A DNA stretch of 64,000 bases from Bilabrum cf. latius. Its lineage: Eukaryota. Each line of letters begins with the position of its first letter. Positions within the stretch are counted from its first letter, which is position 1. The DNA is taken from contig OZ237735.1 in the NCBI GenBank assembly GCA_965178125.1, positions 2,046,001 to 2,110,000 of the forward strand. Direction: 5' to 3'. The translations under genes and the position numbers were made by a program. The notes under the pieces are model-generated. The model was not told where the DNA came from, ran no database searches, and was given only the letters and a program-made list of their open reading frames with translations. Shown one piece after another: positions 1 to 63,661 of this stretch.

Positions 1-1
1 T

Positions 2-39000: not shown

Positions 39001-42000
39001 CGAGGAAGGTAGCGTGTTGCTGTGAAGTGGCTGACATGAGGCCGTGCCCAGCCGCGGTCGATGCAGCAGCGCTAAAGTGGGAGTGAACGACATTGGCGGT
39101 ACTAGCCGCGCGGCGGCCTGCCAAGAGAACGGGCTCGGCGCCGCGCTTTTCCAGCTCAGCGGCGGTCTCGGTCTCACCGGCCCCAGCAGAGTTCATGGGC
39201 AGCAGATGCACGGACACCGTGTACTCGCCGGCGATCACAGGGGTGTACCTGATGTCATAGGTCCCATCGCCGTTGTCTACTATGTCACCGGCCACAATAG
39301 TGCGCCCGCCGGCAGACCCGTCAGCAAGGTCCTAAAGAGACAACTCCCCGAGTCCATCGGCTGTCACGAGCGATGTGCGAGCTACGATGCGGCTGGCGTC
39401 GCCACCGACCGTGATCTGGTTTCCGCTCGAATCGCGAGCCTGCAGAGTCATTGTGGACACATCACCGGCAACTCCTTCGGTGAGACCGCTGCCACTCACC
39501 GAGGTGGTCACGTACGAGATGCGGCCAGGCAGCACGGTCACAGAGTATGGTGAGGCACCCATTGGGGTGCTGGCACCCACCGCCTCTCCAGCAAACGACA
39601 CACTCACTGAGAACGTGCCAGCGGAAGTGGGGGTGTACCGTGCGCGGAACAGGCCGGAACCGACGGACTCCACTACTGGGGCAATCACCTGGCCGGCACC
39701 AGCCACCTCGACCGAAATGTCGTTCAACACGGCCGCGCCCTCTGGGGTGGTCGCGTCGTCGGTCCGGTTGTTGCCCTGAGCATCTCTAAGCTGCAGGTAG
39801 AACTCGGTTGGCACTCCTGCGACGAGGCTGGAAGACTCGGCGCCCTCGCCGAACACCATCGAGAACGGCGCATCGGGCATTCCGGGCCTCACATCGATGG
39901 CAAAAGGAGAGCCGTGGATATGCTCCGCTGCAGCGAGCATGCCAGAGGGGACAACCTCCCGAGCGCGAGAAGGCGAAGACCACTCCAGCTTGATGGCTGC
40001 TGGTCCAGTGGAATGGCGGTACTCAACCACGACGTCCGCCCACTCGCCCTCCTCGAGCTCGACGCCAGCCTGGAGCTCCTGCATGGTATCTAGCTGACCC
40101 GCGACGTCCGACGGAGACATGCCCTGGCTGAGAAGCAGCTCGTGGTTGATCCACACCCTGACACCACCACCAATAGCAGACACGAAGAACGTGAAGCGCT
40201 CCGTGGAGGGTACCAGAAGCTTGCCAGTCCAGCGAATCGACACATAGTCCCTTGCGTAGGGCGTCACGAGTCCCTCGCCAAAATCAAAATCGATGCCGGC
40301 GTCCAGCCTCTCCATCGACGCAGGCGCGCGGAACCACTGGGAGTCGTAGTAAGCACCGGTCAGGCCACCGCGCACTAGCTGCCGCACGGCAAGGGCAGCC
40401 GGGCCGGGGCTCGAAGGGGCGTACCGCCCAGCGTACGCTGGCTTGCCCACGACGAGATGCTTGCTAAGGACATCACCGCCATCGAAGTTGTCGGCGGCTC
40501 CCATGCGGGTCTCCTCCACAGCCACTGATGCGCTGCTTCCGCGCAGTGAGGCGGCGTTGGAAACAAGGATAGGCGCATCGCCAGGGAAGTCCACAAAGGT
40601 GACGGACCACTCAAACGTCTGGGCTGGCCCGCTCAGAGCCTGCCTGGACACGCGGACGGAGCCCAGGCCCGGCAAGAGCTCGAGTGCCGCCTGCATCTCA
40701 GACGCAGAAGCGTCATGCGGAATGGCCGCGGAGTCAACGCCCCCAAACTGAAGGGTGAAGGATCCCGCCAAAGGCGTGGGCGATCCACCGCTGGTAGCAA
40801 TTCGCTGCACCTCCCGCACGGTCGTGCCCGGCTGGATCAGCGGCACCGAACCCGCGTTACGACGGAAGGTGACCAGCCAGGTCAGCCCGTTCCAACGAGC
40901 GCTGCGGTCAACATCCACAGTACCAACGGAGGGCAACGCCTCCAGTGCAGCCTTCACGTCCGAAGCAGTGGCGTCGTAGCCGAGTAGCTCGGTCTCATCG
41001 CTCTCAAACGACAGCGTAAAGGTGCCTGTGAGCGGCGACGACCCGTTCGTCACAGTGGCCACAGCGGAGTCCTCCGGGGTGGTGCTGCCTGACGTGATCT
41101 CGATCTCCGGCACGTTGCCCAGGGGCTGCGCAAACGTGATGCTCCAGCGGGTAGCGCCGGTCACACCAGCGGCAGCGGCCACGCCGGTCGTGTCCACAGC
41201 CACAGAAGCCTTCACAAAGGCGGTCGAGTCCTCTTGGAGGGCAGCATCCGTCACGCCGAAGTCGAACGGCGTAGGCACGGCGCTGTCAGCACCAGTGCTG
41301 GAGGTATTGGCTGCTCCAGTGACTTCGCGAAGCAGAATCGTGCCGAGCGCGGCCTCAAGCTCGTCAGCGGTTGTGGCTGAGGTCACTGCAATCGTGGTCG
41401 TGGACTCACCCACCTTCAGCACGAGCTCAGAGGTGGTCATATCAGTAGCTGCAGTAAAGCTGGTCAGCGTCACGGTCTGCACCTCCCGTACAATGCCGGT
41501 GGCAGCAGCAGACTTGATGGACTGCACTGCAGCGCGGCCAGAACGGATCTCGCGGACGCTCATGGACGCTAGAGCAGTGGCAGGGGTCAGCACCTCAGCT
41601 GCAACGCTGAGGGGAGCCACGTCTCCAGTCAGGGTCAGGAAGGTGACGTCCCACACAGAGGCCCCCTGTCCAGCAGGTGATCCCTCGTACCGAGTCACCT
41701 ACACATCACCCGTGGCGGTCGTTCCATCGGCTGTGGTCAGCGCCTCAAGCGCGGCCTCCACTTCGGCCGCAGTCGCGTCGAATTCAAGGGGGATCGTGAC
41801 CAACGAGGTGTTCCCGCCTCCCAGCAAGAGGGTCTAGTTCAGGTTGAAAGCCAGAGTAAAGTTGCCGGCCGACACGGCGGGTGCAGATGCCGACAGCGGC
41901 GGCACGTCGATGGAGATTCGCTGCACCTCTGCCTCAGTGGGCTCGTAGGTGGCAACACCGCCGTCTGATGACCACGAGTACACCATGGAAGCAGACGAGG

Positions 42001-45000
42001 CCGGGTAGCGAGATCCGACGAGGTCGTCAGAGGCAGGGGTGAAGGCAGGGTCCGTGCCATCAGCTGGGAGTGCTTGCCTGGAAGCAGACCACACCTCAGT
42101 GAAGAACAGATCCATGCCCGCGAAGCCATCAGCGGCGTTTACGTCGCGTACCACAGAGCCGTCTGCACGACGCGGCTGGATAGTGAACTCATTCGCTCGG
42201 CCGCGGACCTCCTCCGTGACCTCAACCGTGGTGTTCACGCCCACTAGGGCAGTGTTGCCACCAGACTGCAGCAGCGGGATGTCCCCGGCCCCAGCGTCCA
42301 GGAAAGTAACCCGGAAGGCAGACCCAGTCCTGCCCGCTGAAAGTGCTCCGAGATCCTCGCCAACGTGCACTCGCACGTCACCAATGACGGCCTGGTAATG
42401 GCTGGAGTTGCCATCGGCTTCAGAGGAGAAGGGCATGTACTGAAGATCGATAAGCGCATCACGCACTTCAGCAGTCGACGCATTCCAAGCAATCGCATCG
42501 GACTCGGCACCGTTTCCAATGCGCAGGGTGAACGTTCCTGCCGGTGCGTCCCCGCCCGTGGCTGCCACTACAATGGACTGCACCTCGCGCACCTCCCCGG
42601 TGAAGCCGCGAGCGAGAGCTCCTCCAACGGCCTCCGTCCTGGCTGCGGATGCTCCGGCGCGGATCACGATAGCGGGGGTCGCAATGGAAGGCGCAGATAC
42701 GGCACCGCCGCCCACGGCAGCTGACAGAGCCACGACACGGAACGCGTAGGCCGCACCAGTAGCAAGACCACTTGCAACAGCGGTGGTACGAGAGTCATCT
42801 CCAGTGCCATCGTACGCCAATACAGCCGGGGTGCCTGCGACGGTCTCGGTGACCATGCCGAACGCCTCTGTGCCGTTCAGGCGACCGGTCGATACGAGCA
42901 TCGAGGGAAGATCACCGACGGAGGCCACAAAAGTGATGGCGAAAGACACGCCCGAATAGTCGGGAGTACCGGCCAGCGGGTCATCGAGGTCAGTGGCCGA
43001 AGGAGAGGCCAGCATGGCGTCCGTGCGAGACACGCGGACCCTACCGTTGGCGCTGGGGATCGTCGTCTCGATCACGCGCGCTACCTCCGCGGGGCTTGCC
43101 GAGACTGGGATGTCACCGGTCACATACCCATCGCCGAAAGTCAGGGTGAAATCACCGGTGAGATCAAGGGAACCCCGAATCGTCTCCTCGACGGATGCAG
43201 TCACGGCCACGCCGGCAGTAGCTTCGTCCAAGAACGAGGTCTCGATGAACAGGGATGGCACATCGCCGCCAGCTCCGACTCCAGCCGAAGTGTCCATGAA
43301 CGTCACGTTGAACGCAGCGCCGTTAGCCGAAGGGGGTGCCAGCTCAACGACACTCACGGTCTGGATGGAGTCGAGCGCCTCGAGGGCAGCCTTGAACGTC
43401 ACGGGGGTCAGCCCGGCCCAATCGATGGCTGCCGTGCTTGCTTGGCCGAACCTGGCCACAAAGCTACCGCCGTTGGCACCGTCAATAGAAACAAGCTGCG
43501 ACTCAGGCTGCGCCTCGGCAGCCAGCAACGTGACCGTCTGCACCTCGACCACCGCCGCTGCCTGGTCCGAAGGCACTACACGGGCAGGCTGTGCGAACAG
43601 CTGGAAGCCAGTAACGCTGCTTCCAGATGCAGCAGCAGCGTCGAAATCAGCAGAATCTGAAAGGCTGACGGCACGGATGGCATCCACCAGAGCAGCATCC
43701 TCGGTGTCCACGCGATCCCAACGGAACTCCGCAGACGTCGAACTAATGGACAGCAGAGCCGGCATGGTGGGCGGCAGAGGGGATCCAGCGGCCCGTACTG
43801 TGGCCACTGGGCTCAGCGGGGACTGCAGCGTGGTGTTGAACGCAGGCCCGGACATGGGCCTTGTCCTGGCACGCACCGCGATGGCGTAATCCTTGCCCTC
43901 CTCCAGGCCCCGGGCCACGTGCCGCAAGGCACCATGCTGCACCACGGAAGCGGTAGCAGTGGCAGCGGCGGGCAGTAGATCATCGTCAATGACACGGAAC
44001 GGGCCGGCAAAGTTGGGGCCCCAGCCGCCGTAGCCGCGAGTCACAGCGATGGTCCACGTGACGCGGCCCTCGGTGGCATCGATCACGTCTTTGGTGGCCA
44101 CGACCTCCGCCATCGAGCCGCCGAGGGTGTACGCAGCCTGGGCCGGGTCCCTTAGCATCTCCTTCACCGCAGTGGCAACCTCCTCCGCGGTGGCGTTAGC
44201 ACCAATGGCCTCGGTCACGATCGTGATGTCGGGATCGCTGCCAAGCCGTGCCTCCAGCCTAAAATCGCTGGTGGAGTCGACGGTGCAGCTTCCGCCGCAT
44301 GTCACAGTCACGGCCTGTGTCTCGGGGTGTCCAGCACCCTCCTGCTGGGTAGAGGAGGCGTCAGGATAGTCCCTTACCTCGATCTACGGGATGTCACCGG
44401 ATGGGTGCAGCACGGTCACGGTGTACACGCCAGCGTTCACCTCCACGCTAGTAGCCACCATCGAAGACGGGTCGGAGCCAGGCACCCCGTTGGCATCCAC
44501 TAGAAGGCTCTCCACGGCCTGCCTCATTGCCACTCCGAACGGGAACGCACCGGAGAAATCAGGAAGGGCCACCGACTGCAGCCCGCCCGCAGACACGGAA
44601 GACGAGACGGCGCCACCAGCGGAAGCTCCAGCGTCATGGAAGGCAGCGCGCGGAGTCGGCCAGCTGACCTCGAGGAAATGCCCGGCCCCAGTGCCGGCTG
44701 CCGTACGCACGGCATCGAGGTCGATCACCTACCGCTCGGGCGTGCCAGCGATCACCTCCTCCACAGCAACCGAACTGTTGGCAACGGATGCACCCTGCAG
44801 AGTAGACAGAGACACGCGCACGGAGTAGTCCGTGACTGCGCTGCCACCGTTGTCAAGGGGTGCGTCCCAGCCAGCTGCCACAACGCCGTCATTTGGCACA
44901 GTAGGGGCACCGGCTGAGGTCTCCGTGTCGCGCTTGGGGGCAGCAGGTGCCGCAGGTGCCCTGGGGTCGCGCGCCACAAAGGGTGCGGAGGGGCTGGAAG

Positions 45001-48000
45001 GCAGGCTGCTGCCTGCGAGGTTCCTGGCGATCACACGGAAGCGCAGGGGCTCGCCGTTCCTGACCATGGGGGCGGAAACCACAGCCGACCTAGTCCATGG
45101 CTGGTCGCTGCCATCGAAAGCAGTGCGCCACCCATCGTCGCCAGGGGAGCCAGACCCCTCCTCGGGGCCCTCCTCTACCTGAAGCTCGTAGCCAGTCACA
45201 TCAGCACCTCCGTCGTCCTCTGGTGCACTCCAGCGCACGTGAATCGAGTCAGCCGTGGTGGCAACCAGCTCTGGTGCTGGCGGGGCCTTGGGTGCGTCGG
45301 GGCTGGGCATGGCGCTGGCAGGGTACGGCACAGCCCTGGGACCGAATCCCTCAGCAACAGATCTGGCCGATACCACGACGTGGTAGGTGCGCTGCGGGCT
45401 CAGTCCGTCGATCAGAAGTGAGTACGGCAGAGGCGCCGACAGATCAGTGAAGTCCACGGTGCCGTAGAAGGCATCCCCGTCAGAACCCACACCGGCCTGG
45501 ATGCGGGAGACGTTGGCAGTCACATTCGCGTCGGCCTCCAGGGGGAGTCCAGCCAGTGTAGCGGCGGTGTCGTTCCACGTCCCGGCGGAAGATCCACCGG
45601 CGATGCCAACCAGGGCCATCACACGGAGCCTGTCGATGAATCCGTGAGCGCAATCGTCCTGCGCGCCCATCTCAAGCGTGGTGGACGCGGGAGTGCGCTG
45701 GCATCCATCGAAGGTCACACGCCACAACACAGTCCCCTCGACAGGCACCCCGATCGAAGTCGTGGCGGCAGGGGTGGCATCGGCCTGCCCATCCCCATCG
45801 TAGTCCAGTCCCACGCTCACAGACCTAGTTACAGACACACCGCCGACGCCGAGGGGTCCCTCGAGAGCTGCCTCCACCTCCTGGGCAGTGGCAAACACCG
45901 AGAGCTGCTCGGTGGAACTGGTCGGAGACGCAGTAAGCAGGCCGAAAGACCCGCCGAGAGCCTCGGATGGGGCCACCAGGGCATGTGCCGTCACCTGGGC
46001 GTCCACACCAGTCAGAGACTGCGCCGAGTCAACCCCAGTGGCGAGAGGCACGATCGTAGGGAAGGCCGGGGCATCGATGGCCGATCCCTGCGGAAAGGCT
46101 CCTGGGTTGGACAAGAAGGTAACCGACCACGCATACCCGCCCTCGCTGTCGGGGCTTGACCGAGTCACGGCCACATCGCCAATGCTGGGGAGCGCCTCAA
46201 GTGCGGCCTCCAGCTCCTGGGGCTGGGCATCATGCGGAATCTCCGCGGAGACATGACCGGCAAAGGACAGGCGGAAGGTCCCGCCCACCTCGTTTCCTGC
46301 CCTGGATCCGGCGGAGAGCACAGTGGCGGCACTGACACAAAGCTGCACGTCCTCCTCGGTCAGCCCTCGCGCCGCAAGGTACTCGGCAGGGTTGCTGGGG
46401 CCGCCCGCAGCGAAAAACTCCTCCTCAACGCCGTCCTGGCACACGATGATCCGCGAGTTGTTTCCCAACAGGGCATCATCCACGCCCTGGATCGCCGGTA
46501 GGTCCCCACCCAGGCCATCGAAAGACACCAGCAGCGCCACGCCGCCCACGCTGTCGATGTTGCCTTGGTCAGTGGTCACGGCTACCGCGGAGGCACTGCC
46601 GATCGAGTCGAGCGACTCCAGGGCAGTCTCCACGTTGCCCACGGTAGATGCGGTGATGGAGATGGCCTCCGTCACCTCTCCGCGGAAAGACAGACGGAAC
46701 TGCCCCTGGAGCGGCGCACCACCGGGCACAGAGGTTACCACGCTCATGAAGCGAGTGCCATCGAGCGCACGGTTGTCGAAGGTGACCTCGGGCACATCGC
46801 CGGCGTAGCCCTGCACGCCGAGGACCGCGAAGGTCAGGGTCATCACCTGCGGTGTTGCAGTGGGGGAGCAGGCACCCGAGGCCCCAGAAGAGAAGGCCAC
46901 GGTCACGCCGCTGACAGAGTCAAGAGCCAGCAGGGCCTGCTCCACGGCAGAGGCTGCGGCGTTCCAGGCGATGTCGCCGGTGCTCTCTCCGTCCACAGCG
47001 AGGCGGAACGTGCCGCCGTTTGCGGCACAGCGCACCTCCTGCTCCTCCTGCACGCTGGCACCGCTGCCATCGCCCGTGATCAGCACAATCTGCCTCTCCC
47101 GCGAGGATGACGAAGCCGAAGTGATCACTTGTTGGCGAGCCACCTGCACCGGCGCAGTCACCTCAATCTCCTGCACCTCTGGCGTGAAGCCGGTGCCAGC
47201 GGCCATCCACTCCACCTTGTACGAGGCGATTCCGGAGCCGCCATCGCTTGCGGGAGGGTTGAAAGACAGACCAAGGGCTCGGCCGGAAGTACCAGCGACT
47301 CCGCTGACGCTGCTGGAGGCAGGCGATGCATCCAGCCTGACGTCGACAGGTGCCGACGGTGCCTGGGGCATCGGGGTGACCAGGCGTGGGAACCCGTAGG
47401 CGGGCTACGACTCACCTGCAGCGCTGAGTGCAATCACCCGCACAGCGTACGGCACGCCCTGGTCGAGCGCCGTGATGAAGCGAGCAAACGCAGCCGAGGC
47501 ACCGGTGGACATGGGAGACGCGTCTCCGGTGTTGCCAGCGGCCTGGTGCATGGAGCCCAGGGGAAGGCCACCAGGCCCTGAGGCAAATGACGGCTCAGCA
47601 CCCTTGATGGCTTCAGACACGGCCACCACCGCCACGGTGGCGTTCAGGGATCGCGCGTCTCCCTGCATGAGGGGCACGTCGCCCACAAGGTCGGAGAAGG
47701 TCACGCTCCAGGTGTACCCAAAGTTGGCGTCTTGGCTGCTGCGCTCGACCTCCACGCTGCCAACGCCGGACAGGAGCTCGATGGCGTCGCGCACCTCGGC
47801 GGCAGTGGCATCTTGAGGCAAGAAGCCAGTGCGCTGCCCGGCGAGGGAGAGGGCGAAGCGGCCGCCGGGCTGAAGCGGGCGCGCGGTCCCGTCCTGCATA
47901 CCCACCAGGGTCAGTGTGGCCGAAACGGGCACAATGGCAGGCTCGGGCAGGTTGCCTGCGAATCCCGCATACGTGATGTTGATGGCGCACCCTTCGGTCG

Positions 48001-50007
48001 CGGGCTCACGGGCGCTGTCACCGGAGACGCTCACGCCGGTGCCGACGTGCTCGGCAATCAGGGCCAGCTCGTCCTGGAGCTCGGCTGCGATCTCACCGCA
48101 AGTGGTTGCGTTGGCAAGGGTTACGTTGCCGGTGGCCACCGACATACCGGTGGTGCGAAGCCCGGAGAAGACGAATGAGAAGGCACCTGCCGGTGCTCCC
48201 GCCGAGATGTCAAGGCGGTGCACCTCAGCGTACGTGCCGCTGCTGACCTTGGCGGCCTCAATGGAGGCACCCTCAATACCCTCGCCCAGGCGGAGCTCGA
48301 CAGCGGAGCTGTTTGCGTCAATCAGCTGGAAGGGACCCTGCTTCTCGGTGAATGAGAGGGTCCAGGTGTACCCGCCCGCCGGCCGGCGGTCGGAGCGCGC
48401 GACATGCACGTGACCCACAACGTCAGATGCCTGGGCATGCAGGGCGGCCTGCATCTCCGCGGCAGTCGCGTTGAGGGAGACGTTCGCCACGCGGGCAGTC
48501 ATCCCGTCAGCGTCCGTAACGTTGAAGCTGAACATGCCGACCAGCTCGTTGCCCTGGATGGAGGACCCCGCGACGTTGCAAGGGTCCCCACCCCTGGTGC
48601 CTGTAAAGGCGGCCGGTAGCAGGGTCGAGTTGGTCGTCTCGCCGTCAGCGCAGACAACGATGGCCGCACCAGTCCCAGACAGCTGTGCGCTGCTGGCAGT
48701 GAGGGTCGGCACGTCACCGTCATGCATCTGCGTGTCGACAAACGTCACGTACCACGAGTACGCACCCTCAGCAGTGGCCGCGTCGGAGCCAGTGAAGGGG
48801 GCCCTCGACACCTCAACGTCACCAACGCCCTGCAGCGCCTGGAGGGCGGACTCCACGTCTGCCTCGCTGGCATCAAAGTCCAGCGCGGTGGTGGTCTCTC
48901 CCTCGAAGCCCAGCGTGAAAGACCCGCCCAGCTGGTTGCCGTGCTGCGTGGTGTCGATGTCCACGCTGGCACCTGCACCGGTGAGGCCACTCCTCACCAC
49001 ACGGAGCTGAGGCTGGTCCGCTGCTGGCTCGTGGAACGTCACGGACCACTCGTAGCCGCCCTGCAAGTCGGGCCCGGTCCTCGTCACAGTGACGTCATCC
49101 ACGTTGAGGAGTGCCTCAATGGAGCTCTCGAACGACGCAAGGCTACCTGCTGCTGCCGCGTCGTGGGCGATGTCGGCGGTCACGTAGCCATCGAAAGAAA
49201 GCGCAAAGCTGCCGCCGAGCGTCTCTCCAGCGAGTGCAGTGGTGGTGACAGTCTGCACCTCCGGCACCCTGCTGGCAGCAGTGTGAACGGACTGAACCTC
49301 GTCCACATCGTCTGCGCTCGTTGTCAGCGTCTGCACCTCGGTGGCACCCACGGTAGGTCGCACGTGAATGCGCTGCACCTCCTCAACGCCCTAATTGGTG
49401 TCCCATTCCACGCGATAGGAAGACACGGGGCTGCCTCCGTCGTCCGAGGGGGTCCCGACTTCCACACGGACCGCACTGCCAGAGACAGCGTTCACGCTGA
49501 CAAAGCTGGGCGAGCTAGGCGGCTCAATCGCGCCGGTCAGCCCCCCAGGGGACGTAGATGAGTTTGATCCTCCGTACAAGGCTCCTTCGCATCCGAAACT
49601 GCCACACACTACTGCGCTGGGCGATGCTGCGAAGATGCCGGGCACGGCAGCGCCACCCTCCAGGATGGACTGCCCTAGCGCACCGACAGCAAGGCCTGCG
49701 AAAAGCTTGGAATGCGATAAATCGTAACCCTTATGGATTGTGGGCAACTGAGGCGCATGCAAATGAGGGGGCAGCCGCTCAGACTAGCCAGGAATTCAAG
49801 ATCATCTTCGACGCTGACGATACAAAGAGTAGGGAGCGCAGGCAAGGTCAGCCACGCGCCATCGCCTGGAAAGCAAGCAAAATTGCACAAGTGATATATT
49901 CACTGGACGATGCCGAGGTATTACGGCTTCAAACGAACCTCTTGGGCTCAACGGTCAGCACGACTACCCTCACATGCAAAGGCTTGCACCGCTGGCGACA
50001 TCCTCAT
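2..50007 (-). CDS. Giant secreted/surface multidomain protein (FN3 + filamin + PA14 + EVQ repeats), >=16,576 aa, 3'-partial; exon 1 50007-49974, exon 2 49695 to beyond position 1; needs TAG read as sense (Gln)
   Basis: All 36 long minus-strand ORF fragments from 146..376 to 49391..49762 share one frame (stop coordinate mod 3 = 2) and each ends in TAG. Reading the gaps by hand gave 5 more in-frame TAGs (7922, 14708, 17561, 24956, 41699) and no TAA/TGA; the frame is still open at position 2. Domain motifs run across the TAGs. The spliced N-terminus MRMSPAVQAFACLAVGALG-QS looks like a signal peptide; N-x-S/T sequons are frequent. Confidence 0.92.
31470..31891 (-). other. PA14 domain 3 of the giant protein, spanning an in-frame TAG at 31556
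   Basis: GGLQGSYYNNRFFFGKPAMTRVDTTISFSW...DDVSARWTGWLKVPFSENFTFEATVNDAARLVVDG...ITLEW*EATGAAQVELKY...IIPAERLF; the domain is complete only if TAG is read through. Confidence 0.85.
35570..36145 (-). other. PA14 domain 2 of the giant protein (approximate limits)
   Basis: GGLLATYY...VDDAIDFNWG...WSARWSGSI...SDGGVRVRVNGTVVIDNW...IEVEYRHGSGAAAIALQW. Confidence 0.85.
39935..40369 (-). other. PA14 domain 1 of the giant protein (approximate limits)
   Basis: GGLTGAYYDSQWF...RLDAGIDFDFGEG...DYVSIRWTGKLLVPSTERFTF...GGGVRVWIN...VEYRHSTGPAAIKLEWSSP...VVP fits the PA14 pattern. Confidence 0.85.
49696..49973 (-). other. Predicted spliceosomal GT-AG intron (278 nt, phase 1) in the giant gene
   Basis: Minus-strand donor GCAT|GTGAGG at 49973 and acceptor TTTTCGCAG|GC at 49696. 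Splicing makes TGC (Cys), keeps frame and joins ATG 50007 to LAVGALGQS. The interval is more AT-rich than the exon and has stops in the exon-2 frame. Confidence 0.75.
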
Positions 50008-50731
50008 TATGAAAGAAGCTATCAGTGCTCTGACTGGCAAGGCACCGATTCAAGACGAGGTCTGAAGCAACTGAGTGGCCGCAACGAGTTGTTGCAGCCG
50101 TGCTCCAGGCGTAGTCGTCGGAACGGCCTCGCTGCAGTCGTCGCGCGAGCTCTCTTCCGGAGAGTGACCCTTCTGCGCACGAAAAGTAGGCGAAATAGAA
50201 TGCTAACGCAGCAAGTACGCCTATGCGGGCGAGCTAGCTCTGCACGGCAGATCCGATGCAAGCATCGGCTTGGGGTACGCCCCAGGTTGAAATCTTCAGA
50301 GCCCAGAGCGACCCACTACGGCACTTACGAAGTCGATCGATCCCGCGTTTGGGTCTAACGGATAGAAACCAAGACTAAACTAGGCCTTGGTACGATTGAT
50401 ATTCCTGTGCGCGATTCCCTTTCGGGTTTAAGCGCCAATTGCAATGCTGGAGGCCGTGCGTTGAAAGCTCGGCAACCGGTTCCGGTTTCCAGCAGGAAAG
50501 CGATGCGGTCGCAAGAAATGGTCGCAGCAGCTAGTCTACGCACCTTTCATGTTGTCGAGCACGTGCCAAGCTTCTGAGGACTAAAGTATGCTATGCAACA
50601 CACTTTGCAATTTTCTGTATGGCGCGACTGAAGGCTTGAAGTTCCGCCGAACGTAATGCCAACTTGAAAGAGCAAGCTCCGGTAGTTTTAAATAAAAGCA
50701 CAACAAATGAGCGATCCAGCGAGAGCCAAAT

Positions 50732-51712: not shown

Positions 51713-52954
51713 GGATTGACGCGTCTGGCCCTGTGGCGGCGCCAGCTGATGGCCTTTGCGCCCAGTGGCCCGCTTTCCACTGCGGTGTTTGTCTTCACCC
51801 CGCCCCGCCTTCGCCTCTGCAGCAGCCATGGCTGCGATTTGGTGGGCCTTCCTGAGTTCGGCTCGCTGCGTGGGCGTCATGCTAGGCCTGGGCCTTGCCC
51901 CTTGCCTTGCTTTTGCCAGGGGTCCTGAAGCAGCACCGGCCCGGGAGGCGCGAGTGCGGCGGCCGCTCGCCACGGCAGCAGCGCGCGCGGCAGCTGGCGG
52001 TCTGCGGCTTCGGCTGGCAATGCCCTTCCCACCTGACCCGGCACCCGCCGCCCGCGACTTGCGCATGGCACGCCTCGCGCGCCCAGCGGCAGAAGAGGCA
52101 AAGAGGGCGCTCGGGCGGCCCCCGCGCTGAGGACCGCTCCCGATTCCGCGCTTGCCGCTGCCGCCGCCGCTCCCCCTTGCTGTGCTCTCTGGCCCCTCAC
52201 CCACTTGGCCGCCTGCCTCGGCATCGGCGCCAACGTGCTCGCTGATTTCGCTGCTTTCCGGCACATCATCACGGCTGGATGGACGGGCATGAATAGGGGA
52301 GCCTTTAATTCTACTAGCCGCCCCATCGGATCGATACCTCTCGTCGTACTCTGTGACAGCACCCTCACCGCTGGGCTCGTGCCACAGCGCGATAGGCCCG
52401 GCAGCAAAATCGCCGACAGGCCGTTCTTGCTGACTGCGCAATCTATGCTGCGTACCAACCTTGCCCTTAGCATGCAGAAGTGCTTGCTCCCTCGCCTCAA
52501 GAGCGCTGTCTTCCCTAGCTCTCCGCTCGGCAGCCCGCTTTACCAGGCTCTCCCGCTGGCGGCCCTTGAAGCTGCCCTCTGCCTCCGTCTACCATGGATT
52601 TTTCGCTGTATATGGGTCTTCATTGCTCTTATCTGCATTATCTTTGGAATTGGCCCGCGAAGAAGGCGCCATAGGGCGACTTCGAGCGTACTTTAGCCTA
52701 GTCTCCGAGTAGTAGTGCTTGGGGTTGTGCAGCTCGCTCTCCTCGGCTATCAGGCCTCCAATGGTGCTTCCATGACCCTTTTCACGAAATCCTTTGGCTC
52801 TTTTCATCGTATCAACGCTTGATTGGATCCATGGATCGTCCATCTTCGGCTTTGGCTTTGTATTTTTAAACGGGTTCGGGTAAAACTCAGATTTTACTGC
52901 AGATATCATCACGCTACTCCGGAATTGAGCCGTTCGGCAACCGATGGATTGCAT
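50732..52954 (-). CDS. Hypothetical low-complexity (Ser/Ala/Arg/Gly-rich) protein, ~740 aa with one internal TAG (52589); start uncertain (alternative ATG 52843)
   Basis: ORFs 52589..52954 and 50732..52441 are in frame, separated only by one TAG plus sense codons; ends TGA at 50732-50734. No domain recognised. Confidence 0.6.
51672..51710. repeat. (CTG)13 trinucleotide microsatellite encoding a poly-Ser tract on the minus strand
   Basis: Perfect ctg repeats; read as AGC (Ser) codons in the 50732 ORF. Confidence 0.9.
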
Positions 52955-53086
52955 CGCCTAGCAATGGATTCTTGTTCGTTTCCCGACTTTTCAGCCGGCC
53001 GATAGTATGCTGGCAGTGCTTCGCTCTCGTCTTATGTTGCTAGCAAACTCGGTGCGATCGAAAGGCAGCGCTAGCAGCTAGACGGC

Positions 53087-55765
53087 ATGTCAGGAATCGC
53101 CTCGTCTGCTGAAGGCGCGTTAAATCCTGATGCGCTTGGTGTTCGAGCAGTTGATAGAGAATTTACATTTCGCACGACGCTGCCTCGCCACTTCATTGGG
53201 GCATCAACACGCGCAGCAGAGCCTCGTGCTGGCTCCAAAGAATCGCTGCCAGGCAGCGACGAGGCCAAAGTGGCTTAGATCCGACCCCCGGCTGATTTTC
53301 GCGGAATCTCAATCAATGGAGAAGCCGAGCTGGCGCAATTTGACAAGATGCTGTCCGCGTCCAGCTCCGAGACGGTTCGTTTGTCGTCATCGCTTGTGTC
53401 TCCTCGGGTCCTTCGCTCCATCGCCGCAAACGCAAGCTCGGACGGCATCCTGTCGCTGGACTTGTCCAATGCGACCATTTCAGTTGCTGCTGCAAATCCT
53501 GGCTCGGCGCTGTCTACAGCGGAAGCAGAGCTTGCCGCAGCAGTAGGGGGTCTCTCCCGGTTGCGACGTCTCAACCTGGATCGCGTGAGAGTTGCGATCC
53601 GCCGTGGCGACCTCGACAGCGAAGACGCCAGCCCTTAGGATGCCGCACGCTTGCCTTCTCACTCAGCAGGGCCAGCAGCTACACCCCCCCTACGTCTGCT
53701 AGAAGCGCTTGGCAGGCCACTTGGCAGCCTGGCGTCGATCAGCATGCGGGGCCAGAGGAGCATGGCGAGCGATGCGGCGTGGGCGCAGGTGCTCAGATCC
53801 GCGGCCGTGCGAGCAGGCGCTTCGGTTGAGGCGAGCAGTGGTGCCAAGCGAGCGGGCGGGTGGAGCCCCATGGCCAGAGGATCAGGCAGAAGCGGCGCTG
53901 CTGGCGGCAGTAGTATGGAGGGTGACGGGCAAGGGGCTGGGGAGGGCTAGGGGCAGCACTCCTCACCAGAAGAGGCTGCGTCCATCGGTGCGGACGAAGA
54001 GGTGACTCGGCTGGCTCGGCTTGCACGGCTTGTGCTAGTATCGCCAGACGCAGCCGATGGAGGGGCGCCAGACCGCAGGGGAGACGTCAGTGGTGGTGAG
54101 GCTAGGGCTGGGGCTGGGGATGGCCCCTTGGCAGCAGCGGATGGTGCTCCTAGGCTGCGAGAGGGGGCGGAAACGGTGCGATGGGTGGAGCTAGATCTGA
54201 GTGACGTCAGCGGGTCGCGATACCGCGACCCGGAGCAGGTCGCCGCGGCGGCCCAGGAGGCCGTCGGAACGTTCGCTGGTGCGATAGATAAGGCCCGGAA
54301 GCTAGACACGAGGCGTCGGAACGCAGCTGACAGGCAGCGCGCCCGCGCCCTGGCGGCAGCGGGCAAGAAGGAGTCCGACTCGAACGGCAAGGGGGGCAAG
54401 AAGGGGGCCAAGGCAGCGGCAGCCAAAGCCAAGGAGGGTGCAAAGGGCAAGAAGAAGGGAGCCAAGAAGAAGGCATCGGAAATACAGCCACCACCCGAGC
54501 CACCCATGGCACCGGAACCGCTGTCGGATGAGGTTGCTGCCTCAGCGGCCGCGGCTGCCGCTGCCGGGGTCCTGGGTTCGAACCCCGCTACGACGTCCGC
54601 GCATCGTTTCCGCACGGACGGACTCACCGATTTAGGGCTCCGAATGATCGGCCTGCTGTGCCCCTTCCTGCAGCGGTTGAGCCTGAAGATGTGCGAGCCA
54701 CCCGTTGTCCCGCTCGTCACACCTGTTTTCGGCGCCACGGATACTAGCAGCGCGGGCGCATCCGGAGACGGCGGTTCGGCATCGGAGTCCAATGTGGGTA
54801 CAATCGGCGGCAAGTGTGACGAGTGGTCTTCGTCGGCCCTGGATCTACCGGACGAAGAAGACCTCGTGGTTGGTGCTCGAACGGCTTCCCTGCGCGCCAT
54901 CGAGGCAGCAAGAGCCAGGGCGGGCAAGAGTGGCAAGAAGGGGAAAGGGGGCGCCAAGGGCAAGTCCGGAGGGTCAGGAGCTGGTGGGGGGAAGAAGGGC
55001 AAGAAGAAGGGGGAAGGGCCAGCCACAGCGGCGCCGCAATCCAGACGACTCGGCCCTGGCTTTGCGGAACTTCTGGCGAGGGCTGAAGGCGCCGCGCGAC
55101 GAGTTCCGCTACGAGCCCCGCTCAGCGGCCGGGGGTTGGGCATGCTGCTCGAGGGGCCGTGCTCCTCGACGCTGCAGGAGCTGGATCTTGGGGGGTGCTT
55201 CTGGGTGGGCAAAGAGGCGCTTTCGGCTGTCGGTAGCAGGTGCAGCGCATTGCAACGGCTGCGTCTGGCCGGTTGCGCGGGTGTGGACGACGGGGCGCTC
55301 CTGGCTCTCTGCGGGAACCTTCACGCGGGCCTGTCGCAGAGCCTCCTGGAGCTCGACCTGACTAGGACGAGGTGCAGTGCCAGCGGGGTGCGGGCGGTGG
55401 TTGGTAGGCTGCACGGGCTCCAGCGGATCGTCCTGATTGGTTGCGACCGGGTTGACCCCGCCGAGACCATCGCTCTTGCCAGGGGCCTGCCACCCAGTGT
55501 GCAGGTGGTGTGGAGGCCCGCGGGAGCAGCAGCAGTGGCGGGTCCTCGCGCGCTGGCGGGCGATGCTGTGGGTGCCCTCGAGGATATTGCTTCACATAAT
55601 GGGGGTGCGGACGGTGGAAGGGCGGGGTCTGCGACGTTTGCCACGGTGAGGGCTCAGTACGTGGAGGGGTTCAAGGCACCGGCCGCCGGCGAGCGGTTCG
55701 AGGACACGCTGGCCGAGCATCTTAGGACGCAGGGCAAAGCTGCCAAGAAGAAGAAAAAGAAATGA
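53087..55765 (+). CDS. Leucine-rich-repeat protein (RNI-like/FBXL-type LRRs), 892 aa with three internal TAGs (53276, 53636, 53948)
   Basis: ORFs 53087, 53348, 53651 and 54002 are one frame joined by TAGs and end in TGA. LRR motifs ILSLDLSNA, LRRLNLDRV, LQRLSLKMC, LQELDLGGCFWV, LQRLRLAGCAGVDD, LLELDLTRTRCS, LQRIVLIGCDRV; Lys/Gly-rich insertions; C-terminal KKKKKK. Confidence 0.8.
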
Positions 55766-56262: not shown

Positions 56263-56927
56263 GCTAAGGCGTTGCAAGTCGGTGGAGCCAGTTCTGCTGG
56301 TTTACATGTCTTCATCTTCCTAAATTGCACACCCCTCCTGCCCCATCCATGGATCCGCTGGTATCGCTGCAATAACTGTCAAACTAGGCGCAAATGTGCG
56401 ACCCAGTGGCCAAACGAATTGAGATTCGGAGTAGCCTGTACCTCATTAGTCTACTGAAGGGCATTTGAGCAATGATACTGGCTGCTAGCCGACGGCCACG
56501 CGCACATGCCGCGCAGAGCTGGACTGCTGGCCCAGAGCTGGGCAGCTTCAGAGCCAGGGACAGGCCAATGGTTAAAGTCAAAAACCAAGTCTCTGCGGCC
56601 CCCTATCTTCACTAGGGCTCCTAGATGCTGCTGAGCTCTGCCAACGTTTCTGGTAGACCTCACCAAGAGGGTGGCAACCCAAAATCGGCCGGGCACTTTT
56701 GGGGGTTATAACCACGCGCTACAAGCAAAAATCTGGTTTGTTGCCGATACGATTGCACTTCCTGCCTGTCCAGCCCACATAGAGTGTGTGCGCGACTACT
56801 GCGCGCAAGAATCATGCATTCAGTACTTCGAAGCTCCCGTCGTGTTGCCAATAGTGCCATCTCTTTCCGAGGTCTGGCCCGAAGACCGGCGTGGTCCGCC
56901 GGCGCAAGAGCAAGTGCCACAAGGCAG

Positions 56928-58688
56928 ATGTCTATATTTGACGCGTTTCTCGGAAGATCAAATGCGGGTGAAAGCCTGGAGCTGACGGCCAATGAGCTCG
57001 CCAACAGCGTTTAGAAATTGCACCATAAGGTGCTGGCTCCACTGAATGACCGATGCCTCGGACCGCTTGAGAAAAGCAGCCACGAGATGCTCACACGGCC
57101 CATGGTGTTCGTGCTAGGCAACCATAGCAGCGGGAAGTCGACATTCATCAACTACGTAACCGGGCGAAAGGTTTAGGCCACCGGGGTAGCCCCCACAGAC
57201 GATGGTTTCACCATTATTGCGCCTGGGCAGGAGGATGCCGATCAGGATGGCCCCGCGCTCGTAGGCGACCCTGACCTTGGATTCGGAGGGCTGAGGGTGT
57301 TTGGCAGAGAACTTATCAACCATGTGAACCTGAAAGTCCGCACTGGCCTGCACCTCAGGGACATCATGGTGGTGGACAGCCCCGGCATGATCGATAGCCC
57401 AATGTCCGTCCAGGGCCTGTCCTAGCACGGGGCAGGTGGCCACGGCGGGACGGGAGGCGGCACGAGCAGCTCCGGTCATTACGACTACGGAATGGACCCC
57501 GCAGGGTCGAGCCTGGGAGGGGCGGCGGCCGAAGAGCGCTACTCTGGGATCCGGACCAACGCCAGCCCGCGGGACCGGGGCTACAATTTCCCGGGCGTGG
57601 TTCGGTGGTTCGCCGAGCGAGCCGACGTGGTGCTCCTGTTTTTCGACCCTGATAAGCCCGGTACGACTGGCGAGACGCTGGCATGCATGCGGGCCGGTCT
57701 CGCTGGGATGGAGCACAAGGTGGCCTTCGTGCTCAACAAGGCGGACCAGTTCGAGAAGGTCCACGACTTCGCGAGGGCGTACGGGTCCCTGTGCTGGAAC
57801 CTGTCCAAGGTGATTCCCAGAAAGGATCTGCCGCTCATCTACACCATGTGTGTGCCCGTGGACTCGAGGGGGGAGGCGAGGATCGGCAAGCTGGCGGACG
57901 AGGACGAGGAGTCAAAGGGCGGGGTGTACGTACCCGGCGAGGGCGGCGCGGACGACGAGTCGAGGGGCCTGCGGGGCCTGCGCAACGCGATGGACGACCT
58001 GGCCGCCAACCGCAAGGACATCATCCAGAGCGTCAGGAAGGCGCCCATGCGGCGAGTGGACAACCTCATCACCCGGCTCTACGACAACACGAGGATGCTC
58101 AGGATGCACGCCCAGATGGTGGAGGCCTTGCGATCGGACGTTCGGTCCAGGCTGTTGCAGTGGGCCTCGGGGGGCGCAGCCGTGGCTGGTTTGTTGGGTG
58201 TACTTTCTGGTTTTTAGCTTTTCGTGGGCTCCTGGGAGACGGGGGCTCCCATGGGCTTGGCTGCGGCCGTGGCCGTGGGTGCCACCTACTGGACATCGCA
58301 GCGGGCCCTTGAGCAGCATCGGAGGTACCTGGTGGAGGGCGGCGCCGCGGGGCTGGAGGCTATGTTCCGCAAGCAGCACTTCATGCAGCTGGCTGAGCGC
58401 GACGATTTCGTGGTGAGTCTGTGGGAGAGGGTGCGGCCGCAGCTTCTCGCGACAATCCGCACGTTCGGCTTGCTTGGGCTGCCCTCCGTGAGTGCGTCGG
58501 AGCTGCACGAGCTGGACAGGATCGCGGGCGAGGAGGTGACCCGGCTGAGGCGAGCTGCCAGCAAGGCAGCAGCCATGGCCGTCAAGGCGGAAGAGGAAAG
58601 CGTTGCTAGGGAGAGCGAGGAAGCCCGGGGGGGCGATCCCCTTGGCGTGGGCAGCGGCACAGCCGACAGCGATGAGCGAAGAAGATGA
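56928..58688 (+). CDS. EHD/sarcalumenin-related dynamin-superfamily P-loop NTPase with predicted C-terminal membrane hairpin, 586 aa, four internal TAGs (57012, 57174, 57423, 58215)
   Basis: G1 GNHSSGKS, G2 region V*ATGVAPTDDGF, G3 DSPGMID, RGYNFPGVVRWFAERADVVLLFFDPDK, G4 LNKAD, RAYGSLCWNLSKVI; two hydrophobic segments near 58150-58290; ends TGA. Confidence 0.88.
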
Positions 58689-58732: not shown

Positions 58733-59425
58733 TCATTTCGATTCTTTGCTTCCGAGGCCGAGGGCCGCATCGACGAATCCTGGGGTGACCACTGCTGGTG
58801 ACTTGCCGCCTGTCGCTGCCTTTACCTTGGCATACACGTCCGGCTCCATGCTGGTGATAGAGCTCTAATATCGCTCGACCTGAATGAGCTTAAACTCTTT
58901 CTCCTCGAGTTTGCGACCGAGCCCTGCCTTGCGAGCAAGCGACTGGACCGCCTGAGCCTTCGTCCAGCCCTGCTCGGGCATCACCTGCGGCAAGTATGTC
59001 GCAGAGAGCGATCGCCTAAGGCCGAATTTGCTTGCTGGTAGCACAATCGTGATGCCGTGAGTGCCCACATCCCAGTCGTCCCACGCTTCCGCAGTTTCGA
59101 ACGCAACGAGAATGGACACCTTGATGCGGCAGGCTTTGAGCTCGCTCGGGGACATGGGATCGAAGCGTCTGTCTTCTAAAGCAGACTTTTTTACATAGTC
59201 GCCCAGGTGCTCAGTAGACGAGGTTCCCAATGTTCCGATACAGCCTCGCAGCTGCCAAGCACCCTTTTGAAGCTTCTCGATTGTAACAAATAGACCTCGC
59301 ACCGGCGCGATAAGCTCATCAGCTAGCTTTGAAGATGATGATCCAGTCAGAATTGATTCTAAATACGCCATGCAATAGAATGCAAGGTCAGCATTGGCAA
59401 GGAGGGGCGGCGCAACCGATGCCAT
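58733..59425 (-). CDS. AMMECR1: AMMECR1-family protein, 230 aa, one internal TAG (58865)
   Basis: Family motifs GLFVT, LRGCIGT, SALEDRRFDP, DDWDVGTHGITI, ATYLPQVMPEQGW, SLARKAG, then ERY*SS; the frame continues to TGA at 58733-58735. Confidence 0.9.
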
Positions 59426-60166
59426 TGGCGTCAATCCGGACAATGGTCACCCCGCAGCTCGCGTACCAAATACAGCTAGTCAGATGAGCAAATCTTTGCG
59501 CTTCACAACCTCTGCACGCCTCGCAACGATTGCGGCCGATGAAGCATGGCGATTGTTCCGCAATAATTCGCTGGCGGCAACCGCGCGGCGCCTCCATGTG
59601 CGTTCACCAGAAATCGTGCTCGCACCAGGCAACCCCGTCAGCCACTAGAAGGCTCTTACTATTCAGCGGTCTGGTGTAAGGTTGCATCTCTATTTTTGTG
59701 ACTCTTTTGCGGACTCGTTGCTGTACGTTGACCTCTTCGTGCAGTCTAGCACGGTCAACGCTGGCTTCGAGCATGCTTTCTGAAGAATGGGGAGAGCTGC
59801 TGGATATTGTGAACATTGAGGAGAGTCCACAGAGCAAGCAAAAAGCAACACTGCCAACCGGATCGATTGCTCAAGCATGGCGGCACACAAGTGAGGCACA
59901 GTCCGTTGCATCACGCAAAGATGTATAGTGATGGCACTGCGTATTTCCTCCACGCATGGCTTTAGGTTGCTCAGAAACTCCAATTATGGCTTGATGATCG
60001 CATAGAAGTATTGCATTTATATTTAATTGCACCTTTTACTGATCGTTTTTCTGCCGATTCTAGTCCGAAATCGGAGGGGAGCGCGTGTGTGGCGTGCCAA
60101 GCATGGTTGTGCTGGAGGTACTGAAACTAGTTTTTCGTTCTGCAAAAGCTTGAACTATACATTCCA

Positions 60167-63100
60167 ATGATTTCATTTGTTCTCATCGGGTCGCTCGCAG
60201 AATCAGATGCTCAGAGGCCACTCCAGACTGCAAGTGCCCCGGCAGCTGCAGAGAGCTCAGCACCTGACGATCCAACAAGCAGTCTAGCTCTGAGAACTCG
60301 TGGAATTGATCAGCAAACAGATGATCATGGCCATGCCAAGGAAATTATGCGTCCAGACTCTGCTGAACAGCGTGGTTCAATTGAAGCTGGCAAGCGATTC
60401 GATTCGAGCGAGCTGTCACATGTGCCAGAACCACCATAGAAGCTGTTCCAAGGAAAGAAACAACCTAAGGAACGAGATCACGACTACAGCACAGAAATTA
60501 ATACTCTGGGAAGCACCCAGGACGGCGGTGCATTCTCTGATGAGGGAGATGACGCAAAGGACCCATCGGCGTCGTCTGGTCGCCTTTGGGCAGATTTCGG
60601 CTTCGAAAAGGACCGGCGAGCAGGGATACCTGAGCTACGAATCTCAGCAGTGCAGCAAAATCTCGCTGTGTCGAAGCGAATCGGTGAGCTTTCCCCGCGG
60701 GGGTCCGCGCTCGAGCAGGCAGAGCTGCGACCAGCCGCGGCCTACTTCGAAGGGAAACAAGACAACAGCGGAGCTGACCGGGATGAAACTCAAGCTGAAG
60801 AACGTTCGGCAGAACTGGATCCGCTTTTGGATTCAAGTGCTCAAGGTTTGAAGCAACTTGAAGCGCGCGACGAACAGCACAAGTCGCCCGAGCAGCCGCA
60901 GCCGCAGCTGCAGCTGCAGCCAGCACGACGCCACAGAAGGCGCCGCGAGAGTAGCCGCCTCAAAGCCTCCAAGGAGCAAGCAGCACAGCTTGATGAGGAG
61001 CTTGACGGCAAAAGGCAGAACGATTCAGCTGCCTCAGGCAGGCAAGAGCATGCCGCGCCGACCTGGGACGCTCTAGTCTCGAATACGATGGCGGATCATG
61101 GATATGCTGGCAACGCCGATGCCCGGGCCATATCTGCCGGACCGGGGCATGAATATGACCTGTCAGAGATGCATGACCATCAGAGCGAAGCTGCAGGCAG
61201 CGGCGGTCGCTTCGAAGAAGTAGATGACATCGAGGCAATGGCAGCAATGCAGCAACAGTCGCGCGCATTGGGGGCGGCTCGGCGAAGCGGAATCATGGTG
61301 TCGCCCAGCCACATCCATTCGTACGGAGTGCCGAAGGAGCTGCAACATCAATCAATGCTTCAGCCCGGCACACCTGCAAGTGCAATCAGCAGCCTGGTGC
61401 TCCCCTTGCAGGCGCTGTCCATTCGCGGGCACCAGCCACCACTGGACGCAAGTGCGTTCGGCAAAAATAGCGAAGCCGTTGCGTCGATACCGGCCTACAA
61501 CCCGCAGTTAAGCCGAGGTTTGACTGCAGGATATCAGTCGACCGGTCTCGGCACCATGAATGGGGCATCAGCAGCGGCGGTCTCATTCATGCAGACATAG
61601 ACGGTCGAGTCGTCGCCGGTGACGACTGTGGACGGGGTGTACCCAGGCGTCTTCCCGTCAGGGAGCAGCGGCTCTAACAGCGACTAGATTCCAGTGCAGC
61701 GCGCTCCTCCGAAGGGGTTAGGTCTGGTGCCTCCGCTCTACTAGGAGCGGCCGCGCAGCAGCGCAGCCCTTGCAAACGTGGGCAGTGGACCGATCGCTAG
61801 TCTTGCAGCTCTTGCAGGCACCGGCCGTGCAACGAGCAGCGGTGCTCTGTTCGCTGCACAAGGAATCTTGTTAAGTACCAGCGCAGCTGCTCAGCCCTAC
61901 AACCTTCTGGACTAGCCTCACAGCCGGGCGTCGCACTCGCAGACCGCGTCGGAACCCCCGGTGTTCAGCAACTACAGGATCCGCAGCGCAACTTCTACGA
62001 GCCAGGCCCCGGCGGTGGCTCACCCGAACATCGCTGCGCTCCTCTCCAGCACAGCTCCGCCGACATCCAGCGCTGTGCCTCGCTCCTCCAGAGCACGGCA
62101 GGTTGCTTCGCCTAGCGATGCCAAGCGCAGCGTCCGCAAGCTGCCAAAGTACACCAGGGAATGCTTCGTGAGGCCGAAGATCAACGCGCATCCGGACGTG
62201 CCTGCGGATTATCTGAGCGATGATCGCCTGCTGAAGGGGTCTGGAAGGCTACATCCGCAACAAATATGCACCCTCAAGCACTGGATGGCGGACAGAGATC
62301 ACTGGGAGAAGCCGTACCCGACAGAGGCCGAGAAGCACGAGCTCAGTCGGAAATGCGATCTGAAGCTCACGCAGGTGTCCGACTGGTTCCGCAACGAACG
62401 CAAGCGGTTGTGGCTACCGCTGATGCGCCAGCTTGGCAAGATTCCCGCCAACGGCTCCCACCTCGCGATCATGGGGTCGGCGCGGAGGAGCAAGGGGTCT
62501 TCATCCTCTGGCTCCAGGTCTGGAGCTTCGAGGAAGCAGTCACGCAGCAGCGCGGCAGCCAGGCAAAAAGCGCTAGGAGCTGCTGCGTCCGAGTTTCCCA
62601 CTGCGTCAATGCATAGCCAGGGCCCAAGTATGGACATGGGGCAGAGCCAGGCACTCGCGGCCGCGCCCCAGTCCAGGGTCGGCAGGACCAGGACGAGGTC
62701 TGACGCAGCCTGTAAGCCCAAATTGGCCTTCACTCCAAGTAGTATCACCACGCGTACGGAGGCACTGGCCACGAAGTAGCGCAAGGCCAGGCCCAGGGCA
62801 GCAAGCACAGCTGCGCTGCATGCTAGCAGCACACGGCAAGTGGGAGCCGGTGGGTTCGGCATCGCAGGCACACTGCAGCCGCAGCCGACGCTACATTGCC
62901 CGGCGGCCAGTGACCCGATCATCAGTGGATCGAGCGTCCGCGCAGCGCAAGAGGCGCTGCTGATGGAGACTCCCGGCGGAAAACTTGCGGCAGGTCTGCA
63001 GCCGGGCGGCCTCTCGACTCCAACTCCCGGCGTCGCCGGGGGCACGACATCCGCCGGTGCACAGTCTTCCTCGTCGTCGTCGTCTTCCTCGTCTTCCACC

Positions 63101-63661
63101 ACGCCGCTGGCATCGTTCTCAAACGTTGCTGTACTCGCTGCCATGTACCCTGAGGGGCCTGCAGCGCGCTCGATGGCGGCAGCTCAGGCATCATCGAGCG
63201 GTGGCCCGGGTGCTTGGGCCGGAGGCATGCACCAATCGGCTGCCCGAAGCAGCAGCTCGACAGTGTCTGAGCCTAGGTCCAACCCGCAGCAAGACTCTGG
63301 TTCCTCGACGCCAGTTGGACGAGCTAGTACCAGCGATGACATCGGCCACGGTGGCACCTCGTCCCAGGCGGTGGGCTCTTCTGCAGGGCCTACCAGCCCC
63401 GCGGGAGACCACGACAAGAAAGGCGAATCAATCGGAACAGCAGTGGCGATGGCTCTCTCCAGCAAGCATTCTGCTGCATCGTCAAGGCGGTCATCAAGAG
63501 GATCTAAGCGGCCGAGGCCTCAAGAATTGTCCCAGGGTTCACAAGCAGGTGGTGACAAGGCTGGCACTGAGCCAAGGCGAACCAGCGTTCTGGCAGTGGA
63601 CCCGCGAGCAGGAAAGCGTTCACGAACTACATCTCTTGCTGCAACAGAGGCGGGCAACTGA
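60167..63661 (+). CDS. TALE-class homeodomain transcription factor, ~1,164 aa, six internal TAGs (60437, 61598, 61685, 61742, 61913, 62777); 5' end uncertain (possible upstream exon/intron)
   Basis: ORFs 60167, 60650, 61961 and 62840 are one frame interrupted only by TAG and end in TGA. Homeodomain at ~62234-62419: LKHWMADRDHWEKPYPTEAEKHELSRKCDLKLTQVSDWFRNERKRLW, with the TALE PYP motif. The rest is low-complexity. Confidence 0.82.

Follow-up and report, generated by a model that had tools for sequence, protein, structure and literature searches.

A nuclear genetic code in which UAG very likely means glutamine, apart from UAA and UGA, in a bicosoecid-type stramenopile

The window, by which we mean the whole 64,000-nucleotide stretch of DNA analyzed here, is part of contig C1 of a 48.6-Mb assembly (111 contigs) of about 60% GC. 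At its center of interest lies a frame for an EHD/RME-1-like NTPase that contains four in-frame TAG codons (Table 1) and has candidate ATG starts at 56814 or 56928. The product belongs to the dynamin superfamily (Pfam Dynamin_N, E 5e-9), and its structure matches are EHD2/EHD4 (E 4e-27), with which its P-loop, switch-I region, and helical core align. It differs from canonical EHD/RME-1 in belonging to a subfamily annotated "rme1-like without a C-terminal EH domain," found here mostly in stramenopiles; a separate EHD gene, nearer the canonical type, lies on contig C8 of the same genome. A hydrophobic segment is found near residue 490. Most of the window to the left is taken up by a 17,443-codon frame that contains no TAA or TGA and reaches its TGA end some 2.5 kb beyond the window's left edge; because it is broken only by TAG, in-frame TAG occurs far beyond chance. 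This frame (~52 kb) probably encodes a giant surface protein, and a signal-peptide-like exon lies upstream of it, near 49,900–50,300. The TALE-class homeobox gene on the other side of the NTPase has a product of about 1,150 residues.

Table 1. Genes, motifs, and in-frame TAG codons in the window (L119 is a metagenome contig from a relative)
Feature	Coordinates	Strand	Details
Most of the 17,443-codon frame, 43 TAG	1..49795	-	FN3, PA14, filamin repeats
980-codon frame, 5 TAG, TGA end	52823..55765	+	No Pfam family; L119 orthologue
EHD/RME-1-like NTPase frame, TAG taken as Gln, no EH domain	56712..58688	+	658 codons, TGA end
In-frame TAG, codon 101	57012..57014	+	L119 has CAG; column unconserved
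P-loop GNHSSGKS	57117..57140	+	Sequence motif and structure alignment
In-frame TAG, putatively read as Gln, codon 155	57174..57176	+	Q in homologues; CAA in L119 orthologue
GVAPTDD, aligning with GPEPTTD of EHD2	57183..57203	+	Homologue and structure alignment
In-frame TAG, codon 238, variable insert	57423..57425	+	L119 has GTC; uninformative
In-frame TAG, codon 502, beside hydrophobic segment	58215..58217	+	TAG in L119 too
AMMECR1 gene, one TAG at 58867-58865, TGA end	58733..59446	-	Pfam E 3e-35
TALE-type homeobox gene, 7 TAG, TGA end	60125..63661	+	Homeobox_KN E 5e-13

The first-pass annotation had singled out the TAG at 57174, placing it between the P-loop and switch I and proposing Gln as its meaning. 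The codon does lie in frame between GNHSSGKS and GVAPTDD, and the column aligned with it is Q in 120/120 homologues (the best 120 of 1621 matches), so that the Leu, Trp, or Glu that would have spoken for another residue occurs in none of these 120. The other three TAG codons of the gene fall in variable columns of the same alignment and by themselves say nothing, because those columns are unconserved. An intron over the codon had been named as the other way out, and the TT that precedes the TAG does make it look like an intron acceptor. However, 11 in-frame GT..AG excisions, none longer than 120 nt, would take out the codon, and each removes the Gln column together with neighboring conserved residues, the P-loop, or GVAPTDD. 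Against splicing or RNA editing there is also a contig from run X7 (from another study, and RNA by guess only), which covers 57097–57267 with no difference and no joint; of the runs with contigs spanning the codon (X7, X9, and X12), X7 alone bears on this, and run X1, a possible source sample, was not counted. Since a syntenic relative has CAA here colinearly and hundreds of sites elsewhere would need the same fix, we give almost no credence to splicing, editing, an assembly error, or a pseudogene lesion as the explanation for this TAG.

That relative is represented by one metagenome contig (L119), syntenic with the window region at about 75% DNA identity, whose EHD/RME-1-like orthologue is 82% identical in protein sequence. 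Eight positions carry TAG in either orthologue; at five of them TAG swaps with CAG or CAA (two TAG of the window gene are CAG/CAA in L119, and three CAG of the window gene are TAG there), one has TAG on both sides, and the remaining two differ. The single TAG of AMMECR1 is likewise CAA in L119. In two poorly conserved neighboring genes (50% and 32% identity), TAG meets a Gln codon in 1/3 and 2/11 cases. Because TAG and Gln codons replace each other in both directions, at least one relative appears to share the UAG = Gln code.

To determine what TAG means across the genome, we retrieved a 10-kb stretch at each of 19 dynein heavy chain loci (L065–L083); their 20 long frames comprise 60,590 codons in all. 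These hold 2174 CAG, 367 CAA, 265 TAG, and 0 TAA codons, where a TAA:TAG ratio like that of CAA:CAG would predict about 45 TAA. Where the paralogues agree at a column to at least 70%, TAG falls on Q in 15/18 cases, compared with 182/235 for CAG and 17/23 for CAA, and at 80% conservation in 9/10; no TAG falls on a Y column conserved at 70% or more. A log-likelihood over 176 dynein TAG sites ranks Q best, followed by K (-30) and E (-34), with Y (-195) 18th of the 20 residues. The likelihood and the conserved columns together rule out Leu, Trp, Glu, Lys, Ser, and Tyr as the meaning of UAG, and the lack of TAA in these 60,590 codons, together with TAA at gene ends, rules out the code in which both UAR codons are Gln (table 6). 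Under this code, introns are nearly absent from the dynein heavy chain genes (18/19 stretches form one frame, and L071 has a break), unlike the eRF1 and Rab genes, which have short introns.

Other gene families give the same picture of TAG. The switch-II Gln of small GTPases is encoded by CAG nine times, TAG eight times, and CAA four times (21 loci with a readable motif among 30 fetched). In a further 21 stretches of 10 kb, coding-like sequence goes on past TAG in 49/59 cases, compared with 452/504 for CAG, 56/74 for CAA, 1/17 for TGA, and 0/2 for TAA; behind the remaining 10/59 TAG codons lies non-coding-like sequence. TAG accounts for 308/3376 Gln codons (9%), its share drops with rising GC3 (rho -0.81, 21 frames), and it appears to be a third, non-preferred Gln codon. 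Had the TAG at 57174 been the only finding, it could be taken for programmed read-through in a standard-code organism, but in-frame TAG is present in most of the long genes examined, the sequence after TAG shows no read-through context (the CARYYA signal follows 1/308), and the exchanges of TAG with CAG and CAA run both ways between the window and L119. Gene-specific read-through is already refuted by the genome-wide counts, and the chance that it accounts for this codon is vanishingly small. The first-pass annotation was right that the TAG is translated; what it took for read-through is better described as codon reassignment throughout the genome than as suppression, leaky or programmed, confined to a single gene. 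From these sequence comparisons we conclude, with high confidence, that nuclear UAG means Gln genome-wide in this bicosoecid-type stramenopile, with UAA and UGA as stops.

A tRNA that could read UAG is encoded in the genome. A tRNA model search, in which 63 of 780 candidates were scored, gave 48 matches, the second-best of which has CUA as its anticodon (G000:C23:907607-907679, minus strand); one copy of this gene was seen, in a stretch whose genes themselves use in-frame TAG. No UUA anticodon was found among these 48 matches or among 25 further pattern matches scanned. The tRNA-arm pattern had 38 matches, with 25 unassigned loci in which ARAGORN found no tRNA and four nuclear matches outside the scan, and a 10-letter anticodon-loop pattern gave background only (32 matches versus 40 for the control). 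A search of viral contigs for the tRNA-CUA motif came up empty. We infer that the single-copy tRNA-CUA carries Gln and decodes UAG; charging by GlnRS is proposed because the protein alignments show Gln. Since pairing of C34 with the A of UAA is not possible, UAA would be left to eRF1.

The body of this tRNA appears to be an unusual Tyr/Gln mosaic. Among 25 nuclear tRNA genes of the same genome, the closest is tRNA-Tyr (50/73), with the Gln tRNAs at 48 and 44. The acceptor region is Tyr-like (12/15, compared with 6/15 for the Gln tRNAs), and the first pair is C1-G72, in contrast to G1-C72 in the Gln tRNAs. The D arm matches Gln(UUG) and Glu at 16/19 positions and Tyr at 11, the anticodon arm Tyr at 12/17 and Gln(CUG) at 11, and the variable region plus T arm Gln(UUG) at 18/22 and Ser at 19. 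In eukaryotes, C1-G72 and A73 are identity elements for TyrRS. The Tyr-like acceptor, the C1-G72 pair, and an anticodon one change away from GUA would suit partial charging by TyrRS, which would make UAG mostly Gln and partly Tyr. We consider this very unlikely, since the discriminator is G73 as in tRNA-Gln(UUG) rather than the A73 of Tyr, the D arm is of the Gln(UUG) kind, and the dynein sites place TAG on no conserved Tyr column and rank Tyr near the bottom. Among the other tRNA genes, tRNA-Gln(UUG) and tRNA-Gln(CUG) (L013 on C5; L051 and L052 on C7) differ strongly along their whole length, D arm and discriminator included. Eukaryotic tRNA-Ile usually carries AAU; two nuclear tRNA-Ile genes here (L011 on C32 and L054 on C4) have a GAU anticodon, and Ala-AGC and Thr-AGU are present.

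We then looked at the release factor. One eRF1 gene was found, encoding 438 residues in four exons as placed by alignment, with GT..AG introns of 92–256 nt. Its frame requires two TAG codons to be read, both in the N domain; in 87 full-length homologues, one of these columns is Q in 83/87, and the other is L in 83/87 and Q in 4. The N domain deviates at 22/95 conserved columns, compared with 9/94 in Cafeteria and a homologue median of 1 (two homologues deviate more), while the middle and C domains deviate much as in Cafeteria (7 versus 6 and 12 versus 12). With positions given in human numbering by offset from NIKS, the changes include R28K, G29A, N30D, S60V, L69Q, N129S, and K130H. The R28K-G29A-N30D run lies beside GTS, and L69Q is also present in 4/87 homologues. 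Nothing is altered in the core motifs GTS, NIKS, and YxCxxxF or at E55 and S70. Earlier reports tie positions 129 and 69 to the reading of a third-position G, and of the changes there they describe only N129P as UAG-selective (PMC3632111, PMC4381064); changes at position 60 of human eRF1 (PMC3632111) and N30A in yeast eRF1 (PMC4381064) are described there as without effect. Because of these precedents, we offer the eRF1 step of the code change as a hypothesis, in which the N-domain changes (N129S, K130H, L69Q, and R28K-G29A-N30D) might lower recognition of UAG. Four metagenome eRF1 homologues (P0220, P0233, P0195, and P0177) deviate at 16–25 N-domain positions; other eukaryotes with variant codes may be their source, or the sequences may be miscalled.

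Stop usage was counted at defined gene ends. Fourteen dynein frames reach the conserved C terminus, 11 ending in TGA and three in TAA (five frames that ran off the fetched stretch and one with an internal break were left out). Of the 30 GTPase loci, 20 end in a prenylation motif, followed by TGA in 16 and TAA in four; the ten without an end motif were left out, and five of those have TAG in the tail. Together with eRF1, which ends in TAA, this makes 27 TGA, 8 TAA, and 0 TAG at 35 well-defined ends, which bounds the use of TAG as a stop at up to about 8% of genes. UAG could nevertheless have a double meaning, as stop codons do in Condylostoma and Blastocrithidia, being Gln inside genes and a stop near some transcript ends, or it could be incompletely decoded in competition with eRF1. 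The intact eRF1 core motifs, the one tRNA-CUA copy seen, the fall of the TAG share with GC3 (as for a slow codon), and the 10/59 TAG codons without coding-like sequence behind them are all compatible with this. In contrast, none of the 35 ends is TAG, a TAG stands 20 codons before the end of dynein L076 and another in the L113 GTPase tail before the prenylation motif, and genes with 43–45 TAG codons would need decoding at near-full efficiency (0.95^43 = 0.11). A double meaning is accordingly improbable, and Gln as the sole meaning of UAG is the reading we prefer.

The organism itself appears to be a bicosoecid-type stramenopile. In a quick single-gene tree without bootstrap (47 of 121 sequences), the NTPase groups with Cafeteria and two further sequences at an SH-aLRT of 97; its top named matches are stramenopiles, and the best named match of eRF1 is Cafeteria (69%). 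For mitochondrial nad7, the sole organism-named match among 120 is Cafileria marina (71%), with other relatives at 88–100%. The 38.4-kb mitochondrial contig (G000:C111; L084, L004) carries a tRNA with a UCA anticodon and genes with TGA in frame, and all seven mitochondrial genes examined end in TAA; mitochondrial TGA decoding has been described for bicosoecids (PMC6723347). The assembly also includes a second eukaryotic 18S gene (G000:C95:6099-7900, L115), on an 18-kb contig, that is 77–83% identical to the 18S repeats on C12. It is probably from a co-cultured eukaryote, and it may be dinoflagellate-like.

Codes in which UAG alone is reassigned have been described as Gln in Iotanema, Protocruzia, Hartmannula, and Trochilia, as Leu in exLh and three ciliate MAGs, and as Ser in Scotinosphaera (PMC11687900). 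The fornicate Iotanema spirale, from an unrelated lineage, has the same codon table, with UAG as Gln, UAA as stop, and UAG uncoupled from UAA; its eRF1 is reported to carry T32G in GTS, which is intact here (PMC5304391; PMC9161772), and its tRNA-CUA was predicted but, according to that report, not found, whereas the gene is found here (PMC5304391). The ciliates Hartmannula sinica, Trochilia petrani, and Protocruzia tuzeti share the table by independent origins; the survey describing them reports no suppressor tRNA detected in the first two and UAA as the preferred stop (PMC11687900), in contrast to UGA at 27/35 ends in this roughly 60% GC genome. In the rhizarian exLh and TARA phyllopharyngean MAGs (Leu) and in Scotinosphaera (Ser), UAG alone is also reassigned but to another amino acid (PMC11687900). 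The CUA tRNA described for two of the UAG = Leu MAGs is clearly derived from tRNA-Leu, unlike the Gln/Tyr mosaic here, and exLh eRF1 is reported with L69A, at a position that is changed here too, to Gln. The crAss-like phages using "Genetic code 15" also read TAG alone as Gln but in a bacterial translation system (PMC9523058).

In the literature searched, we found no report of nuclear UAG reassignment in stramenopiles; most subscription literature lay outside that search, and an earlier report is possible. Judged from sequence, this is with little doubt a new and independent occurrence, in stramenopiles, of a known kind of code. It is likely the first nuclear reassignment in that group, arisen in a GC-rich genome with UGA as the main stop. 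More tentatively, and with considerable doubt on our part, it may be both the first and one in which the UAG-reading tRNA came from a tRNA-Tyr amber suppressor turned Gln-type, the Tyr origin being the uncertain part. Along such a route, one anticodon change would have been followed by a Gln-type D arm and G73, conferring Gln identity. If true, UAG = Gln would have been reached here along a path different from the one assumed, in which a duplicated tRNA-Gln(CUG) mutates.

Standard gene calling breaks up the proteins of this lineage, and such fragmentation may be why protein databases show no named close relative. Nuclear codes separating UAG from UAA are known in just a few lineages, and the present one would add one that arose independently, in a major group of eukaryotes where no nuclear case turned up in the literature searched. 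Now that the tRNA gene, eRF1, and GlnRS (G000:C33, L120) can be studied in a contiguous 48.6-Mb assembly, with standard-code relatives such as Cafeteria available for comparison, how eRF1 gives up UAG yet keeps UAA becomes directly testable.
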